In this document: positions 9,261-17,580 of the stretch, one piece after another | How positions within the stretch are numbered: position 1 is the stretch's first letter | Layout of the letters: every line of letters starts with the position of its first letter | IMG/VR virus record: IMGVR_UViG_3300049012_000046 | Span: 1 to 62,450 of that record | DNA: 62,450 bases | DNA from: a virus | Taxonomy: Duplodnaviria; Caudoviricetes | Direction: 5' to 3' (one strand) | The notes under the pieces: generated by a model | Told to the model about the DNA's origin: nothing | What the model saw: the letters and a program-made list of their open reading frames with translations, nothing else | Databases searched by the model: none | Translations under genes and position numbers: made by a program

Positions 9261-9605
9261 ATGAAGATCGCTTTCAACACTGGCCGCCTGTACACCAAGC
9301 AGGGCCAGCCGATGACCGTGACGTTGATCGAGAACCCCGACTACACCTACTCGGCCGTCTTCGTCGACCACGGCCGCGGCATCGACGGCGTCGTGCCAAT
9401 GTTCCGCAGGCCTGACTACAGCTACGACCTGGCGCGTCTGGTGATGCATGCCTACGACCATGGGCAGTACCGTCACGTGAGGACGTACGACCAGAAGGAC
9501 GGCAAGTACGTGGAGACCGCCGAGTACCAGGCCAAGGAGGCGATGCGCAAGGTGGACTGGGCCGAAACCGCCGGCGCCGAGACGATCGAGAAAGGGTGGC
9601 TGTGA
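9261..9605 (+). CDS. Hypothetical phage protein
   Basis: ACTTCAAAGGAG motif at 9245-9256; FNTGRLYT..GQ...FVDHGRGIDG motif. Confidence 0.8.
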   Translation: MKIAFNTGRLYTKQGQPMTVTLIENPDYTYSAVFVDHGRGIDGVVPMFRRPDYSYDLARLVMHAYDHGQYRHVRTYDQKDGKYVETAEYQAKEAMRKVDWAETAGAETIEKGWL

Positions 9606-9882
9606 TGGACGAGAAGGAATTTCACGCGGCGATCTCGGCGACCTGCAGGTCGATGGATCATGTGGCCGCCAACCTGCGCAGCCTGGCCATGTCATTCAGC
9701 CGCACCGGCAACTCGGTCGTCGCGAAGGAGCTGACCAGCTACGCCGATCTGCTGGACGACCGGGCGGAGCAGCTGCAGGCCGATCGCGGTGCGCACCTGC
9801 GGCAGCAGTTCGACGAGTCGACCCAGCAAATGGGGCGCATCCTGACGTCGCTGGCGAACAAGGTCACAGGGGAGGGCAGGTG

Positions 9883-10143
9883 ATGGCACTCGCGCTCAAG
9901 CGATACACCGCCAACGCTGGCGACTTCTATCGGGACGTGCTCGGTCAAGCACTCGACGGTGGCCGCACCATCTCGATCAACACGCTGGGTCGCGCCATCT
10001 ACGAGGGGCAGATTGTCGAGTTGAGCCCGGTCGGTGTTCATCTGGAGTGGACGAACGGCGGCGTCCCAGGCTACCGAGAATACAGTCAGGTGTTCATCGC
10101 CATCGAGCATATCGTTGGCATCAGCGTCAAGGGGGTCAGGTGA
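9883..10143 (+). CDS. Possible Sm/Hfq-like fold protein
   Basis: Helix followed by beta strands (YEGQIVEL...FIAIEHIVGISV) resembling Sm1/Sm2 motifs. Confidence 0.45.
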   Translation: MALALKRYTANAGDFYRDVLGQALDGGRTISINTLGRAIYEGQIVELSPVGVHLEWTNGGVPGYREYSQVFIAIEHIVGISVKGVR

Positions 10144-10976
10144 TGGCGCACTACTTCGCTGATGCCGCGGACTGCATGTGGCGGCTGGCCCAGGTGGCCG
10201 CGGACGACGCCTACGCCAACAAGATCGGCGCCCAGCTTGCCGAGGCGTTGGGTGTCAAGCGTGACACGCAGCACCCCGAGGGCTGGGCCACCACCTACGG
10301 CTGGAAGACCGACGCCGGCTTGGCGCGCACGGCGCTGCGCATTCTGATGGAGGCACAGTGATCAATCGGCTCGAAGCCAAGTACATCCTGGCCGGCAATC
10401 ACGAGCTGCTGACGCAGCTGTTCAACGAACGCGACCGGCTGCGCAACATGCTCAAGTGGGTGCGGCGCGTTCTGCCCGCGGCCGCCGACTGCCCGGAGCC
10501 GGGCGTCAACTTGGTCAACTACACCGACATCGAGTGGGATCAGCTGTGCGAGGTGACCAAGATGATTGACGCGGAGCTGGGCCCGAGCGCCCTGGTGAAG
10601 CTGTTCAAGGAGAAGCTGAAGTGAACGAAGACAAACCCACCGCAGTTGTCACCCTGAAGATCAAGTCGAACACCGGCTATGCGGCCACCAACAACTTCGC
10701 CGGCGTCACGCCCGAGCAGTACGGCGAGGCCTGCGGCGTGCTCAATGGCAACGTCGATCCGATGCGCATGCGCCACCTGCTGCAGGAGTTCAAGCGCTTC
10801 GCCGAGAGCGGGCAGTCGTTCATCTACCCGGCGGGCACGTGGCAGGAGTTGCAGGATTTGCTGAAGTGACCCAGCGTGACACCGCGCCCCAGCTTCTGCT
10901 CACGACCACCTACTGCTGTGAGCGGGCTGTTGGGACTGGCCGGCGCATGTGCGCCGAATGTGAAGGGAGTTTTCCG

Positions 10977-11324
10977 ATGTATCGCGATCACGACGAAGAC
11001 GACCCGCCCCCGCTGCCCCACCGGTGGGAGATCTGCAGCCGCTGCCGCGGCGAGGGCAAGCACTGCAACCCGGCGATCGACGGCAATGGCCTGACACGCG
11101 AGGACTTCGACGAGGACCCCGACTTCGCCGAGATGTACTTCAGCGGGGCGTACGACGTGCCTTGCCACGAGTGCGGCGGCCGCGGCAGCGTCAAGGTGCC
11201 CGACGTCAGCCAGATGACCTTCGCGCAGAAGCGCCAGTACGTGCTGCAGCTGCGCGGCGGGCGTGAGCGCGACGCGGCCTGGGAGAGCGAGCGCTATCTC
11301 CGGATGGCAGAAGGGTGGGAATGA
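10977..11324 (+). CDS. DnaJ-type zinc-finger-like protein
   Basis: CSRCRGEG and CHECGGRG (CxxCxGxG) repeats; RBS GAAGGGAG. Confidence 0.75.
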   Translation: MYRDHDEDDPPPLPHRWEICSRCRGEGKHCNPAIDGNGLTREDFDEDPDFAEMYFSGAYDVPCHECGGRGSVKVPDVSQMTFAQKRQYVLQLRGGRERDAAWESERYLRMAEGWE

Positions 11325-11352
11325 TCTAGGGGGACTGTCACATTTCCCCGAA

Positions 11353-11381
11353 TTGACCCTGGGCACGTGATCTGCTATTCC
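11353..11381 (+). promoter_or_regulatory. Putative sigma70 promoter
   Basis: TTGACC-17 nt-TATTCC with extended -10 TG, in an intergenic gap upstream of 11407. Confidence 0.55.
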
Positions 11382-11646
11382 TTGCAGCATTGGGTAAGGA
11401 GTCCGTATGCAGATTCATCGTGTCCTGGTCATCCACCCGCCCGAGCCGCAGTCAACCACCCAGGTGATCGGCACCCGGTTGGTGCTGTGCGACTCAGTCG
11501 AGTGCGCGATGGCGATCGTCAAGGGGCGCGAGCCCGACGGTTGCACCATCGCCTATGACCACGCCTACGGGCCAGGCGAAGTTATCAAGCATGCCCACAT
11601 GACGATGCCGCGGTCGGAGGCCGCGCAGTGGGCGCGAGAGGCCCCA

Positions 11647-11797
11647 CTCGTCGCTTGAGCTTGATCTAAGCGACGAGCCGTGAAGAAAGTCTGACTGACA
11701 ACTTTACCGAGTAGTTGAAAGGATGCTATCGTCTCGTGCAGAGACGAGGCGGAGCTACGACCACCCCACGCGGCGCAATGCCGCAACTTCAAAGGAG
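11647..11797 (+). promoter_or_regulatory. Regulatory intergenic region: hairpin, putative promoter, palindrome, start motif
   Basis: 10-bp stem 11647-11677; TTTACC-18-TATCGT (11703-11732) with TG; inverted repeat TCGTCTC-5-GAGACGA 11729-11747; hairpin + ACTTCAAAGGAG 11770-11797. Confidence 0.55.
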
Positions 11798-11803
11798 ACC
11801 ATC

Positions 11804-12103
11804 ATGGTCATCACGCATGTTGCTACCCGTGAACTCCATCGTGTCGGCGCCGACCTGACGCCGAACCAATTCCAGGCCCTGCAGGCCGCGCTGCGCGCCG
11901 CCGAGCGCTCCGGTACCACCCTGGCCCAGATCGCGGCCCACGACGCCGCCTTGGCCGACCTGCGCGTGCCCAAGCGCTGCGCGGCGCTGCTCGACCTTGC
12001 CAAGCGGGCGGTGTGGACGCGCCGCGATGCGCTGCGTCAGGAGGAGAAGGAGCTCGTGGCCAGCTTCGGCCGGCTGGATCTGCGGGCGAAGTTGGTGTCG
12101 TGA
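11804..12103 (+). CDS. Helical hypothetical protein
   Basis: Strong RBS motif; first gene after the putative promoter. Confidence 0.75.
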   Translation: MVITHVATRELHRVGADLTPNQFQALQAALRAAERSGTTLAQIAAHDAALADLRVPKRCAALLDLAKRAVWTRRDALRQEEKELVASFGRLDLRAKLVS

Positions 12104-12784
12104 TGAAAGTCGAAGTTACCAAGGAGCGCACCGTCCCCGCGGCGTGCGCGATCGCCATTCCGATCAAGTGGGGGATGACCTTCACGCTGACGGTGGACGC
12201 GCCCAACGTCGAGGCGCACCTGGCGCTGGAGGAGATCGCCCGCGCCTTCAATGATCGCAAGGCGCTGCGCGAGATGCTGCAGCAGGTCCTGGACCGCTGG
12301 GACCAGCCGCTGCGGCCGCTGAGTGCGGCCGATGTCAATTGCATCCAGGCGCTGCTCAACCAGACCAAGGAGATCGAGTGAAGTCCTGCTTCAACTGTGG
12401 CCGCAGCCAACTGAACCCGGGTCAGCCGGGCCTGCTGTGCACGGAACCGCGCGGCGCGGCCTGGCGCGACCACACCAACCCGGGCGTCTGCGCCTTGCCT
12501 GGCGCCCCCGACAGCCCGAGCATCGTTCGCATCAATGCGCTGCGCTGCGAGACGCTGGCCACGTACTGCAGCGTGTACATCGAGGAGAGCTGCGCGTGAA
12601 GACTCTCTACTTCGTCTCGAAGTACGACTTCAAGAACAACCTGTGGATCCGCTTTCTCGTGACGGCGCGCTGCCCCGAGCAGGCGAGCAAACAGGTGGCC
12701 GACTACTGCGAGGGCATCGACGGCCAGCTCAAGGCGCCGCTGATGGTGTGCAGCACGTCGCAAGACGTTTTCATGGAGGTCTGA

Positions 12785-13069
12785 ATGCCGGCAATCACAG
12801 CAGACATGGTGATGGCACTGTCCGCATGCACGGAGTGCCCGATGGTCGAGTGCAAGGCAGCACTTGTCGCTTGCGGCGGTGACATGCAGCGGGCGATCGA
12901 CTGGCTGCGCGCGCCGTCGCACATTCGTGAGCGGCGCCGGCAAGAAGCGCTCGAGGCGCGCGTTGATCGGCTGGAGGAGCTGGTCACGCAGCAGGCTGCC
13001 CTGCTGGCCAAGGTGCCGGCACTGATCGCCGAGATGGCCGGCGCTCCTCGCAAGCGGGAGGCGGAATGA
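12785..13069 (+). CDS. Protein with EF-Ts N-terminal UBA-like domain plus coiled coil
   Basis: ITADMVMALSACTECPMVECKAALVACGGDMQRAIDWLR parallels EF-Ts ITA..VKELR..TG..MMDCKKAL....GD...AI..LR. Confidence 0.75.
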   Translation: MPAITADMVMALSACTECPMVECKAALVACGGDMQRAIDWLRAPSHIRERRRQEALEARVDRLEELVTQQAALLAKVPALIAEMAGAPRKREAE

Positions 13070-13338
13070 CCAGCCCCGAGCGCAAGAAGGCGCAGGCCGA
13101 GGCCTACGAGAGCGGCTACCAGGCGTTTCGTGACGGCGCCCACTCTTCACACAACCCGTACGGCTGGGGCGACGGCTGCAGCAGCCGCTGGTTGGATGGC
13201 TGGGAGGCTGCGAGGCGTGAGCACGCGGCCTCCCAGGCACAGGAGAAGGAGGACGAGATCGACGCGCGCATCCGGCGCATCGTGCTGGAGGAGCTGGTGA
13301 AGCACCGGCTGATCGCAGTGCGGGAGTACGGCGAATGA
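13066..13338 (+). CDS. Rmf/CrpP-fold protein (ribosome modulation factor-like)
   Basis: AYESGYQA...G.....NPY.......WLDGWEAA matches Rmf A..RGYQAG..G.....CPY......WLGGW..A. Confidence 0.7.
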   Translation: MTSPERKKAQAEAYESGYQAFRDGAHSSHNPYGWGDGCSSRWLDGWEAARREHAASQAQEKEDEIDARIRRIVLEELVKHRLIAVREYGE

Positions 13339-13751
13339 GCCCCAATGACCACGCCCTCTACAAGGCGTTCCAGCGGATGTGCGATCGGTTCGCCGAGATC
13401 ATCGAGGAGCACCCCGAGCTGGCGACCGCAGAGCTCTCAGCGGAGGCCGACGAGCTGGATCGCCTCGCCGACATCTACGAGCGTGAGCACGCCGAGGACA
13501 TGTGGGTGGTCGTCTACAGCCCGGAGACCAACGAGGAGTACCTGCGCCGCACGGTGGGCGAGCACGAGCACCTCGACACGCTGGCCATTGCGCAGTCGAT
13601 CGCCGAAGAGTGCGACCAGCTGATCGCCGAGCCCAACGGCCACATCCCGAACTGCTGCGGCGACATCCGCGTCGAGTTCCGCCGCGACCCCGACAACTCG
13701 ACCCTCATCTGGTCGGGCGAGTCCTTCTATTTCAAGCGAGAGGACGAATGA
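13335..13751 (+). CDS. Acidic hypothetical protein
   Basis: ATGA-coupled; D/E-rich 138 aa. Confidence 0.75.
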   Translation: MSPNDHALYKAFQRMCDRFAEIIEEHPELATAELSAEADELDRLADIYEREHAEDMWVVVYSPETNEEYLRRTVGEHEHLDTLAIAQSIAEECDQLIAEPNGHIPNCCGDIRVEFRRDPDNSTLIWSGESFYFKREDE

Positions 13752-14003
13752 CATGAGCCTTGCCCTGACCAGCGGCACCGTTCGCAGCCTGAGCCCGCGC
13801 ACCAGGCTGAAGAAGCGGCATCTCGACGCGCTGCAAGCGGCCATCTCCGATGCTGAGGCCTGGCGCGGCTCGCTGATGGGGCACTACCCCGACGACGAGG
13901 AGAGCATCCTGGCCGAGCAGGAACGGCTTGCCAAGTTCGACGCACGCATCAAGGTGATGCGCGAAGCGTTGGCCTTGGTGCGCAAGATGAACAAGGAGAA
14001 GTG

Positions 14004-14321
14004 ATGGACTGGACCGAACGAAACCGCGAACAGACAGCCAATGACCGTCTCGACCAGCTCGCTCGCCACGAGCAACAGCTGATCGATCGCATCGCGGCGT
14101 TGGAGGCCAAGGTCGACAAGCGGCTTGTCGATGTGGGCGAGCGTGTGATGAAGGCCGACCAGCTGCTGATGCAGCGGATCGTGGAGCTCGAGGTGTGGAA
14201 GGAAGGGCAGGACCAGATCAATCAGCGCGTCGTGCACAACATGGAAGGCGCCATTGCGGCGCTGAAGGACCATCACCAGACGCTGGAGATGGTGCTGGAA
14301 GTCGTGAAGGTGAGGAGTTAG
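14004..14321 (+). CDS. Coiled-coil hypothetical protein
   Basis: Heptad pattern throughout; RBS AAGGAG. Confidence 0.75.
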   Translation: MDWTERNREQTANDRLDQLARHEQQLIDRIAALEAKVDKRLVDVGERVMKADQLLMQRIVELEVWKEGQDQINQRVVHNMEGAIAALKDHHQTLEMVLEVVKVRS

Positions 14322-14323
14322 CG

Positions 14324-14674
14324 ATGGATCAGATCAACATCAACGACCACAACAGCCAGGCTGCGCGGTTCCTGCGCGAGGCGCTCGAGGCCTGGCGCAA
14401 GAAGCAGCCGTACTACAGCATTCAGCCGTTCAACCCGTTCAACAAGGTGAACGTCACGCTGATGGCCAACGACATCGAGCTGCCGTTCACCGAGGTCGTG
14501 GAGACCATCTACGCGAGGATGCACGAGCATTTCGAGCGGCGGGTGCTGGTCGAGGCGCGCGAGCTGGTGGACAGGGCCCAGCTCGACAAGCTGCAGGAGA
14601 CGCTGTCGCAGGTGGATGAGACCATCAATGCGGCGCTGCACGCGCTCTGGGAGCAGAAGCAGCGCGGCCGATGA
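14324..14674 (+). CDS. Hypothetical protein
   Basis: RBS GAGGAG; 116 aa. Confidence 0.75.
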   Translation: MDQININDHNSQAARFLREALEAWRKKQPYYSIQPFNPFNKVNVTLMANDIELPFTEVVETIYARMHEHFERRVLVEARELVDRAQLDKLQETLSQVDETINAALHALWEQKQRGR

Positions 14675-14769
14675 GATGGACCCGCTTTCATTCCTTGCCG
14701 GCCTGGCCGTCGGCGTCGTCGTGACGCTGGCGGGCTACTGGCTGATCCACACGTTCTTCGGAGACTGAC

Positions 14770-14982
14770 ATGGCCGACTACACAGCATCCGTCTGGTTTG
14801 AGCGCGATCGCGCCATGGTCGCGCTGCTCGACAACGACAAGGAGGTCTTCTGTCTTTGGGATGACGACGTGTACGGGGCGATTCAGGACGGCTTCCTGCC
14901 CAAGCCGCGCCACCCGCGGCCGAGCGAGGCCGAGTGGCTGCCGTGCCTGATCGAGTATGCCAACTACTACGGACTGATCTGA
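14770..14982 (+). CDS. Conserved phage hypothetical protein
   Basis: WFERDR...WDDDV..AI.DGFL motif. Confidence 0.75.
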   Translation: MADYTASVWFERDRAMVALLDNDKEVFCLWDDDVYGAIQDGFLPKPRHPRPSEAEWLPCLIEYANYYGLI

Positions 14983-14983
14983 C

Positions 14984-15319
14984 ATGACCGAAGGCCAATA
15001 CCAAGAGCAGTACGGCATCGATCCGCCTGCGCCCGGCCAGCCATCTCCCAACGAGGAGATCTGGACGACTCGCGACGGCCGGAAGATCCCGGTCGGCGAG
15101 ATGGACGAGGACCACGTGCGCAATGCGCTGCGCATGTGCATCCGGGTGATGCGTAAGAACAAGGCCAAGCTGGCCGAGCTGAAGGCTGTGCTCAAGCCGC
15201 TGCTCGACGACTACCACGAGATGCGCAAGGAGCGCAGGTTGCGCATGGAGCAGCGCCTGGATCAGTTCCCCGACGATGACGTCTGGGGCGACAACGACAG
15301 CACACAAGGAGGTAAGTGA
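14984..15319 (+). CDS. Phage hypothetical protein
   Basis: WTTRDGRKIPVGEMDEDHVRNALRM motif. Confidence 0.75.
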   Translation: MTEGQYQEQYGIDPPAPGQPSPNEEIWTTRDGRKIPVGEMDEDHVRNALRMCIRVMRKNKAKLAELKAVLKPLLDDYHEMRKERRLRMEQRLDQFPDDDVWGDNDSTQGGK

Positions 15320-15524
15320 GGTGACGACAGCACACCTGCTGGCCGCCGCACTCGAGGAGTGCTTGCCGTACTTCGAGGGGGCGCAGAACCGGAGTCTCAA
15401 TGACTGGCGAGCAGCTGATGCCACCAGACGTGAGGCCGAGGCCGCTCTGTGCCGCGCAGCCCAGTATCGCGTCCTTCTTGCGCAGGCCCACAGCAACAAC
15501 GACAGCACACAAGGAGGTAAGTGA
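15291..15524 (+). repeat. 29-bp exact direct repeats (15291-15319 and 15496-15524) flanking ORF 15321-15524
   Basis: ACAACGACAGCACACAAGGAGGTAAGTGA occurs twice; both ORFs end NDSTQGGK*. Confidence 0.95.
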
Positions 15525-15773
15525 ATGGGACAAGCCAAGCAACGCGGCACCTTCGAGGAGCGCAGGAAGTTGGCGCTGGATCGTGCGGCCGCCGAGGCGC
15601 TGCGCAAGGCCGAGGCGGAGCTCGAGCGCGTGGAGCGTCAGCGCGCCTTCGAAGCGACCTTGCCCGCGCACGAGCAAGCGCTGCTCCGCGAGCACCGGCT
15701 GCGGGCGCAGGTGCGCATCGCGCAGCTGATGGGGTTGCCGTTGATGATGACCAAGGGAAAGGAGAGCCTGTGA
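15525..15773 (+). CDS. Helical phage protein (MGQAKQRGTFEER family)
   Basis: Recognisable N-terminal motif; RBS from the repeat. Confidence 0.75.
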   Translation: MGQAKQRGTFEERRKLALDRAAAEALRKAEAELERVERQRAFEATLPAHEQALLREHRLRAQVRIAQLMGLPLMMTKGKESL

Positions 15774-15984
15774 ACCGTACCTACCGCTGGGTGATCGAGC
15801 CCAACACCAAGTTCCCCACGACGCACATGCTGGAGGCCAGCTACAACCCGCTGTGCACGCACCGGCACGCAGTCAACTGCGACAGCTGCAGCATCCCGAA
15901 CGTCATCGCGCACGCCGTGGCGTTCGCCGCGAACTTCGGCGTGATGCGCATGGAGATCGACGGCCAGCTGCTGGAGTGCGTGAA

Positions 15985-16272
15985 GTGAGCGAGCTGCTGG
16001 GCTGTCCCTGGGACGGTGAGAAGCCGACCCTGGAGGTCCGCAAGGTGGGCCACCGTGATGAGCCGAGCACGTATGTCTACTACGAGTGCCCGAAGTGCGG
16101 GGCCACGCGAGGCACCTGCGTGGACTACGAAGGCGAGGAGCTGGCGCATGCCTTCATGTACGGCTACGGCTTCGCGAAGCCGCCTGGCTGGCCCAGCCTG
16201 GATTGGTGGCATGCAGCAATGCTGGCCATGGAGTCGACGGTGCGAGGGAAGTGGAACAGGAGGGCGTCGTGA
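15985..16272 (+). CDS. Lar-like (restriction alleviation) zinc-ribbon protein
   Basis: ELLGCPWDG...ECPKCGA...KWNRR follows the Lar pattern (L.PCPFCG...C..CGA...WNRR). Confidence 0.6.
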   Translation: MSELLGCPWDGEKPTLEVRKVGHRDEPSTYVYYECPKCGATRGTCVDYEGEELAHAFMYGYGFAKPPGWPSLDWWHAAMLAMESTVRGKWNRRAS

Positions 16273-17337
16273 AGCGAAGCATTAGCGATGACGACCTGTG
16301 CTCCGACTGCAAGCTGTGTCGCTATAACCCCGGCGGCATGAGCGAGTGCGAGTCGGACTGGCCAGGGCTGTTCGATGCGAACGGCTACTGCGTCGAGTGC
16401 GTGCACTTCATAGCTGTCGAGAAGCGGGGTGACAACTGGGAGTTGACCGATGAATGACGGTTCTTTCTACACCGGCCCGGATGGGCCCATCACGCTGGAG
16501 ATGATCGAGCATGCCAAGGCGGCGTTCGACGCCGCCTGCGGTCCCGAGCCCTTCGGCGAATACATGCGCAAGGCGGGCTTCCCGCCCGAGGACAACTGGG
16601 TCCTCTTCCTGCCGGCGTCGATGGTCGTCGACAAGACGTTGCTGCCTCGCTATGTGCAGGTGACGACGCTGTTCGAAGACCCGACCTTCATCATGTCACC
16701 CTTCCTGAGCAATGCCCTCGACCAACTCTACCGCTCCGAACGCTGAGCAGATCGCCGCCATCGAGCGCTTTGCAGATCTACGCGGCCGGCTGTGGAAGTC
16801 GGCTCTTCGCCACTACTGGGAGCGTGGCTTCCCGGTCTGGATGGGCGATGACGCAGCGCTGCTGCAGCAGCTGCGCAACACGTGCGGGCCGCGATGGCTG
16901 ATCAAGTATCGGAGACCGAAATGATCGACGACTACAAGGCCTACAACTACTGGAGAAAGGAGATGACGCACAAGGTGGTCGACCACAAACACGTCGAGCT
17001 CGGCTTGCTTGGCAAGCCGCACACGGTGTACTTCAAGAGCCTGGGGGCGGCAATGCACTACGCCAAGGCGCTGAGCAACGCGGGCCACGGCTTTCGGTAC
17101 CAGGTGTTTCCGTGCGGGGAGAGGGAATGATCGGCCTCATGTCTGTGAAGGACTACGCCAAGGCGTATCCCGATCATCACTGCCTGATCGTTCGGAACTT
17201 CGCCGGCTATGCCATCTGTGCGCAGCGCGGCGGCGTGCTCGAGCATTTCCCGTCGCGCTCCGATTGCATGGAGGTGCTGACGGCTGCCGGCTACGAGCTG
17301 CGCAACCGGCAGTGGGTTCAAAGGAAGGAGGATTGTC

Positions 17338-17580
17338 ATGCCCTGGGATCGTGAGTCCGACGAGGAGTACGACGACGGCTACACCCGCGAGAGCTTCGAG
17401 CGGGCCGAGGAAGACACGCCGGAGAACGCCGAGCCCTTGCCCGAGCGGTTCGTCGTCTGCGTGGGGATGTCCGCGCAGATGAAGATCTACGGGCCGTTCG
17501 ACTCGTATGACAGTGCCGATGAGTTCGCAGATCGGATCTGCTCCTCGGAGCCGGTGTGGGTGCAGCAGTTGGAGGATTGA
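17338..17580 (+). CDS. Highly acidic small protein
   Basis: 23 D/E vs 6 K/R in 80 aa (hand count); RBS GGAGG. Confidence 0.75.
   Translation: MPWDRESDEEYDDGYTRESFERAEEDTPENAEPLPERFVVCVGMSAQMKIYGPFDSYDSADEFADRICSSEPVWVQQLED

Follow-up and report, generated by a model that had tools for sequence, protein, structure and literature searches.

The locus described here lies in a stretch of viral DNA of 62,450 nucleotides (positions 1 to 62,450 of the IMG/VR virus record IMGVR_UViG_3300049012_000046; Duplodnaviria, Caudoviricetes), referred to below as the window. Two small open reading frames (ORFs), ORF1 and ORF2, lie next to each other on its plus strand (Table 1). An original prediction, made from the letters of the sequence, had described the first as a mimic of the N-terminal domain of elongation factor Ts (EF-Ts) and the second as an Rmf-like gene, and had proposed that the two, coupled at an ATGA overlap, form a two-gene module that hijacks translation. 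Both frames and their coupling are as described, the TGA of ORF1 overlapping the ATG of ORF2 as ATGA at 13066-13069 on the plus strand. The reading preferred here, held with moderate confidence, is that the locus encodes two small proteins that are separate from each other, their genes lying on one strand in a densely packed array of small genes, ORF1 a non-catalytic offshoot of EF-Ts and ORF2 an acidic protein with the fold of ribosome modulation factor (RMF). The analysis bears directly on domain homology, architecture, the loss of key residues and the lack of co-occurrence elsewhere, whereas the binding partners named below are all inferred.

GC content at third codon positions (GC3) is 0.77 in ORF1 and 0.88 in ORF2, values typical of genes in the window, compared with only 0.66 for an antisense ORF of 307 amino acids that covers both genes (12422-13345), and 19 contigs in the protein collection encode a protein identical to ORF1. 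The N-terminus of ORF1 is indeed an EF-Ts UBA-like domain. The Pfam UBA/TS-N family PF00627 matches residues 20-41 with 25.1 bits (gathering threshold 22.4), and the NCBIfam model for tsf, TIGR00116, aligns residues 1-52 with profile positions 1-52 of 293 (E 1.4e-8). The best PDB chains in a phmmer search are EF-Ts chains (2cp9, E 8e-4; 1xb2, E 1.4e-3; 1efu_B, E 0.018), residues 3-51 of 1efu_B aligning to residues 4-52 of ORF1. The likeness to the TS-N domain of EF-Ts (PF00627; TIGR00116 positions 1-52; PDB 1EFU chain B, 7VMX, 2CP9 and 1XB2) is collinear from residue 1, extends to a predicted three-helix bundle, and includes the common signature Cys23-Lys24, Ala26-Leu27, Gly32-Asp33 and Leu41-Arg42. 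ORF1 is accordingly derived from EF-Ts specifically, beyond mere UBA-likeness. It is not itself an EF-Ts: its whole-protein tsf score of 34.3 bits lies below the cut-off of 104.05, the EF-Ts core family PF00889 has no match in ORF1 at E<=1, and the core with its catalytic TDFV segment (Asp80/Phe81) is absent. Since there is no exchange core, ORF1 cannot recycle EF-Tu. EF-Ts possesses core, dimerisation and C-terminal modules, whereas ORF1 lacks all of these, carries Ser13, Val21 and a heptad helix, and is phage-encoded within an array of small genes.

A helical tail, putatively the coiled coil of the original description, does stand in place of the EF-Ts core. In an AlphaFold2 (AF2) model built from the single sequence, helices at residues 6-16, 21-29 and 34-42 are followed by one helix at 44-86; the mean predicted local distance difference test score (pLDDT) is 77, with values of 64-69 in the three-helix part and 89-98 for residues 51-80. 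Hydrophobic residues recur along this tail at a spacing of three to four (L56, V60, L63, V67, (Q70), L74, V77, I81, M84), a heptad pattern that suggests a coiled coil. Foldseek searches with the model gave no PDB match at E<=10 and five matches in BFVD, all with E>3, and the ESM Atlas feature search of ORF1 reached a score of 0.80, a level often attained by shuffled proteins. Weak PADLOC matches to the coiled-coil part (DpdH, E 0.0021, 14 bits) and to ORF3, the gene that follows ORF2, were judged to be noise.

As many as 26 of 42 residues (62%) in the TS-N head of ORF1 are identical in the N-termini of genuine tsf genes on metagenome contigs of 67-71% GC, and the tsf of a named Ralstonia (Burkholderiales) has the same N-terminal type as these best matches. 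The host of the phage is probably a high-GC soil betaproteobacterium. In nucleotides, only 79-82 of 126 positions are identical between the head and the nearest tsf, and the capture of tsf is therefore old. All 80 loci kept from a profile scan of metagenomes (alignment A2) proved to be genuine tsf, full-length or cut by contig ends, with no short family member among them; in a motif scan of genome contigs 81 of 81 loci were genuine tsf, and the motif scan of IMG/VR gave none. Conservation was counted over 117 unique N-termini of genuine EF-Ts, which came from 156 of 161 tsf loci. This sample is biased by the scan motifs in that positions 23, 24, 27, 32, 33 and 37 were fixed by the pattern while position 13 was free. 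The positions conserved in at least 95% of these N-termini that are kept in ORF1 are A6, V9, L12, T16, C23, K24, A26, L27, G32, D33, A37, L41 and R42.

ORF1 does not seem to be alone in this architecture. Searched exhaustively with phmmer, 1.84 billion representatives yielded 120 matches at E<=1e-3, ORF1 included; 49 of the 119 non-self matches were examined in full, and the other 70 by positions, lengths and partial sequence. About 20 of the 119 are neither EF-Ts nor fragments of it. In 12 clusters, which are less than 50% identical to each other, a TS-N domain at the N-terminus is followed by a tail that is not that of EF-Ts and is mostly helical (P0002, P0003, P0005-P0008, P0014, P0036, P0039, P0094, P0109 and P0112), and in eight others the TS-N head lies C-terminal to another domain (P0018, P0031, P0052, P0054, P0088, P0093, P0102 and P0114). 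Tail residues R59, L63 and E64, an R..LE motif, are invariant in five members of the N-terminal type. Like ORF1, to which they are 32-47% identical overall, the short proteins have the same head, the R..LE motif in the tail, and a Pro or 'P-x-H-I-R' right after the domain, where EF-Ts has 'K-G-L'; they differ in that most keep Arg13 and in the length and sequence of the tail. Because the architecture recurs and the tail motif is conserved, the combination of TS-N and helical tail must be maintained by selection and is no decaying fragment. ORF1 is thus a member of a family of short TS-N proteins of phage type, itself rare, whose proteins the sources, where they give a name at all, call "elongation factor Ts".

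Further arrangements of the domain were also seen. Two of the four IMG/VR loci with TS-N were inspected (L003, 3560-4147, and L005, 3548-4150); they lie in large phage records of lower GC, 105 kb and 223 kb, and encode proteins of 195-200 amino acids in which the last ~45 residues are TS-N and the N-terminal region is unrelated. The head also exists in tandem: P0012 and P0019 are short proteins that each carry two TS-N-like repeats. "Pseudomonas phage Y1" (L002, OQ572403.1, marked UNVERIFIED) was considered as a phage carrier of TS-N and rejected: rpsB, a full-length tsf and pyrH of host type follow one another there as on a chromosome, so that part of this "phage" record is bacterial DNA.

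A literature search on phage EF-Ts N-terminal or TS-N domains found no paper describing such proteins, and the only phage EF-Ts piece found in print was gp247 of Caulobacter phage CcrColossus. Its description presents gp247 as a 98-amino-acid 'truncated EF-Ts', proposed to be a translation modulator, that holds the catalytic subdomain N of the EF-Ts core with the equivalent of Phe81 (Gill et al. 2012, PMC3556154). On that description, gp247 resembles ORF1 in being a phage-encoded piece of EF-Ts of ~95 amino acids, but the two are complementary pieces and not homologous regions, ORF1 being the N-terminal docking domain without the catalytic part.

Kept as a TS-N domain alone, with a heptad helix added, a non-catalytic offshoot of host EF-Ts such as ORF1 might still dock through its head on the G domain of host EF-Tu, at the site of the EF-Ts N-domain. 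This is the most likely mechanism, and it is put forward tentatively. The tail would oligomerise the protein or tether the head to something else, and ORF1 would act as an adaptor, a competitor or a decoy, not as an exchange factor. For the short TS-N family as a whole, docking on EF-Tu would be the simplest function: Arg13 is kept by 10 of the 13 members of its alignment (A1), and Cys23-Lys24 by all of them.

Several points weigh against such docking by ORF1. We know of no experiment showing that an isolated TS-N domain binds EF-Tu. Arg13, found in 117 of the 117 genuine EF-Ts N-termini, is Ser in ORF1, and Met21, conserved in 99% of them, is Val. According to a study of the M. tuberculosis EF-Tu/EF-Ts complex, Lys24 forms a salt bridge with D144/D145 of EF-Tu and Arg13 bonds with P114 and E155; R13A is among three EF-Ts mutations that disrupted the complex in gel filtration, and K24A is not among the disruptive mutants listed there (PMC9529903). 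Conservation of the EF-Tu contact residues, the lack of which was named with the original prediction as a point against it, therefore holds for Lys24 and fails for Arg13, one of the two docking residues being kept. Because Arg13, invariant and needed in the M. tuberculosis complex, is Ser, docking on EF-Tu is weakened for ORF1 itself; it is plausible, but uncertain.

The same loss of Arg13 would be expected if the TS-N head had been repurposed as a general protein-binding module for a partner other than EF-Tu, with the tail serving for oligomerisation, and the placement of TS-N at the C-terminus of unrelated phage proteins (L003 and L005) is the behaviour of a portable module. This alternative is nevertheless somewhat unlikely, since the retention of Arg13 by most of the short family, and of Cys23-Lys24 by all, is most simply explained by EF-Tu as the ancestral partner, and no result points to an alternative one.

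The second protein, ORF2, carries the Rmf/CrpP pattern that had been noticed, with core columns identical to Escherichia coli RMF, though its scores fall below the curated cut-offs. Pfam RMF (PF04957) matches residues 1-53 over profile positions 1-52 of 53 (E 3.1e-5, 24.4 bits against a cut-off of 27.9), and with 25 bits, still below the cut-off, in a six-frame search. The best NCBIfam match is NF041886, Rmf_CrpP_fam (residues 13-50 on positions 2-39 of 39; E 3e-4, 20.3 bits against 28), and NF011162 scores 17.2 against a cut-off of 40. The PDB relatives of ORF2 are RMF chains only (E 0.055-0.22). Columns identical to E. coli RMF are G17, Y18, Q19, A20, G24, P31, Y32, W42, L43, G45 and W46; the alignment thus contains the core motif (GYQA, PY, WLxGW), and the AF2 model (helix 4-22, loop, helix 40-88) has the helix-loop-helix. 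No PDB match to this model was found by Foldseek at E<=10, no usable match by the ESM Atlas feature search, and none to the ORF2 tail (33 amino acids) by tblastn against phages. In the ESM Atlas structure search the neighbours of ORF2 were several viral clusters made up of hypothetical proteins, only 10-48% of whose members carry PF04957.

Compared with the RMF of Gammaproteobacteria (PF04957, NF011162; PDB 6H4N, 4V8G and 2JRM), ORF2 has the same helix-loop-helix and G-Y-Q-A...P-Y...W-L-x-G-W pattern, and E. coli RMF is 31% identical to it. It differs in length (90 amino acids against 55, with an extra long helix), in its scores, in its acidity and in its rRNA contacts. According to a cryo-electron microscopy report on the E. 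coli 100S ribosome, RMF holds the backbone of 16S rRNA with the conserved basic residues Arg3, Lys5, Arg8, Arg11 and Arg15 (bioRxiv 10.1101/382572). At these positions ORF2 has S3, R6, A9, E12 and S16, one basic residue out of five. Its head contains 7 Lys/Arg and 8 Asp/Glu (isoelectric point, pI, 6.25, near-neutral) and the whole protein has a pI of 5.81, against 12 Lys/Arg, 5 Asp/Glu and a pI of 10.86 for E. coli RMF. Given the scores below cut-off, the loss of the rRNA grip and the acidic pI, ORF2 is probably unlike RMF in function. Its partner is more likely to be a protein than 16S rRNA, and it would not be a hibernation factor; the caveat attached to the original prediction, that the Rmf-like fold occurs without a ribosome role, is thus the likelier case. 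ORF2 reads as a distant fold relative that is not classable as a member of the Rmf/CrpP family (NF041886), and is best placed in the broad superfamily of the RMF/CrpP fold, as an acidic protein to which a C-terminal helix has been added. The CrpP-like proteins of Pseudomonas integrative and conjugative elements (ICEs) and plasmids resemble ORF2 in being small RMF-fold proteins on a mobile element. CrpP is described as an ICE-borne determinant of ciprofloxacin resistance that can be present without resistance. Nothing seen here ties ORF2 to quinolones.

As regards the pair, the ATGA overlap is generic for the array: by the GC3-based gene list, 11 of its 53 gene junctions overlap by 4 nucleotides, and from 12784 to 14321 all junctions are overlaps or gaps of at most 1 nucleotide. 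The linkage of both genes expected in other phages was not found, TS-N and RMF-fold genes occurring together in none of 21 other viral records. PF04957 was absent from all four viral records bearing TS-N. The four records with an ORF3 homologue (44-59% identity) gave RMF-like matches in one and TS-N in none, and the 13 with a relative of a zinc-finger protein encoded upstream of ORF1 gave weak RMF-like matches in three and TS-N in none; in the TS-N profile searches of these ORF3- and zinc-finger-sharing records both positive controls were detected. A complete 87-kb phage that shares ORF3 (G005, the record of L170) has a small cluster of three RMF-like matches within 4 kb on its minus strand (71383-75275, L187-L189); one of its RMF-like matches is above the Pfam cut-off, inside an open frame of 349 amino acids, and it has no TS-N gene. 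With the overlap generic, no co-occurrence in the 21 records, the rRNA grip of ORF2 lost and Arg13 of ORF1 lost, the module reading is unsupported. ORF1 and ORF2 are likely to be neighbours through operon packing and not as a conserved module.

Two points weigh against this separation. The co-occurrence records are distant and often fragmentary (CheckV completeness 6-100%), and the contigs that encode the nearest ORF1 relatives (P0002, P0006, P0123 and others) lie outside them. Moreover, residues 64-79 in the ORF2 tail are identical at 12 of 16 positions to the tail of P0014/P0123, a TS-N protein of 69 amino acids (BLASTP), a suggestive likeness that could mean a partner in common or a heteromeric coiled coil. 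This likeness is, however, borderline (E 0.013 against 239 proteins), as one shuffled tail in 200 scored as high as the real one. BLASTP of ORF1 against ORF2 gave no alignment, and the tail motif occurs once in the window.

On the strength of such a likeness, the two proteins might be imagined to pair via their C-terminal helices, coupling an EF-Tu-docking head to an RMF-fold head so as to reprogramme translation or blunt EF-Tu-aimed defences, ORF1-type proteins then being an undescribed phage class that seizes host EF-Tu; we regard this as a distinctly unlikely extension of the data. Quite improbable, too, is a dedicated translation unit in which ORF1 would sit on EF-Tu and ORF2 on the 30S subunit, as RMF does, to redirect translation or to act as decoys against translation-targeting defences. 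The adjacency of the genes with their ATGA overlap, the translation-related descent of both heads and the likeness of the ORF2 tail to that of P0014/P0123 speak for it, but an overlap of a kind generic in the array, families never found together in the 21 records, an acidic ORF2 with one of five rRNA-contact residues basic, an ORF1 without Arg13 and a borderline tail score, equalled by one shuffle in 200, all speak against it. Finally, that one or both ORFs are functionless, ORF1 a leftover 5' piece of a captured tsf and ORF2 a drifting RMF-fold gene, would accord with the loss of two near-invariant residues in ORF1, with the position of ORF2 under all curated cut-offs and with the lack of close relatives of either ORF in a word-indexed protein search or IMG/VR, but it is very improbable indeed, as neither frame is interrupted and each has good codon-position GC and a Shine-Dalgarno motif, TS-N with a helical tail and a conserved tail motif recurs in at least 12 divergent clusters, ORF1 is encoded unchanged on 19 contigs, and its frame has stayed open ever since an old capture.

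Table 1. Features of the ORF1 and ORF2 genes and of their products.
Feature	Position	Strand	Description
Shine-Dalgarno-like GGAGG	12775-12779	+	5 nucleotides upstream of ORF1 start; read from sequence
Stop of small upstream ORF	12782-12784	+	abuts ORF1 ATG directly
ORF1	12785-13069	+	94 amino acids; stand-alone EF-Ts N-terminal domain and helical tail
TS-N (UBA-like) three-helix domain of ORF1	12785-12919	+	residues 1-45
Long helix of ORF1	12914-13042	+	residues 44-86; putative coiled-coil/oligomerisation tail; AF2 model and sequence reading
Shine-Dalgarno-like GGGAGG	13056-13061	+	4 nucleotides upstream of ORF2 start, within ORF1 end
ORF2	13066-13338	+	90 amino acids; RMF/CrpP-fold head and helical tail
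RMF-like fold of ORF2	13066-13224	+	residues 1-53: helix 4-22, loop, start of helix 40-88
Tail motif of ORF2	13255-13302	+	residues 64-79 (16 residues); BLASTP likeness to P0014/P0123 tail
ORF2 stop/next-gene ATG overlap	13335-13338	+	ATGA

The window takes in the whole of an IMG/VR virus record, which lacks end repeats and has a CheckV completeness of 57% and a GC content of 65%. Among the proteins it encodes are a tape-measure protein, a GpJ-like tail protein, an SNF2 helicase, an SbcC-like ATPase and a family-A DNA polymerase (PolA) with a 5'-3' exonuclease domain. Its source is an uncultivated siphovirus-like phage of soil and rhizosphere, and near-identical DNA is present in many metagenome runs from both. 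Positions 11000-16000 had no match to phage records by megablast, and the best match of PolA among cultured phages is only 27.7% identical; the phage is for these two reasons considered to be without a close cultured relative. Single-protein scans of IMG/VR with ORF1, ORF2 and PolA found no close relative.

ORF1 and ORF2 sit in a long array of small genes on the plus strand (951-26697), without family assignments, which from its gene order may be an early region; a search of 9500-17500 turned up no promoter-like site. None of ORF1, ORF2, ORF3 and the small ORF upstream of ORF1 matched a family in PHROGs. When ORF0-ORF5 were compared by phmmer with all frames of the loci L170-L186, ORF3 alone matched, and the neighbourhood of ORF1 and ORF2 is on this ground seen as mosaic. 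ORF3 (13335-13751) encodes an acidic protein of 138 amino acids that is conserved in its C-terminal part only (residues 53-138); this part is 44-59% identical in four IMG/VR contigs, and the flanking genes differ in all of them. The most widely shared gene of the region is the zinc-finger gene at 10839-11324, whose product of 161 amino acids has CxxC-type motifs, a weak match to the DnaJ central domain (E 0.0013) and relatives at 41-65% identity in 13 IMG/VR contigs.

Further downstream, a direct repeat of 32 nucleotides (15288-15319 and 15493-15524; copies 97% identical, 205 nucleotides apart) ends with a strong Shine-Dalgarno motif (AAGGAGGT) and, after it, AAGTGA, so that the last residues of two consecutive small ORFs are the same. 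Its 19-nucleotide core has exactly two copies in the window, against none expected by chance. Two metatranscriptome libraries hold contigs identical to 13167-13323, within ORF2, and to 12605-12792, and a contig identical to 13899-14047 is likewise found in metatranscriptome libraries. Over the interior of ORF1 the RNA libraries have no exactly matching contig, a gap to which no meaning is attached. The matching contigs are a weak hint that the ORF1/ORF2 region is expressed, carry-over of DNA into the libraries being possible.

Taken by itself, ORF1 appears to be the more interesting of the pair, as a fragment of a host translation factor that the phage has captured, with a stand-alone head and a putative coiled-coil tail, while the pairing with ORF2, the source of the apparent specialness of the locus, is not supported. 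Acidic phage proteins of the RMF fold without the rRNA grip, ORF2 included, should not carry a hibernation-factor annotation. EF-Tu, one of the most abundant proteins in bacteria, has been exploited repeatedly by phages, toxins and abortive infection systems, as in the Q-beta replicase, Lit/Gol, Doc and contact-dependent inhibition (CDI) toxins. If true, the combination of an EF-Ts docking head with an oligomerising tail would be a simple and testable route by which a phage may seize EF-Tu.

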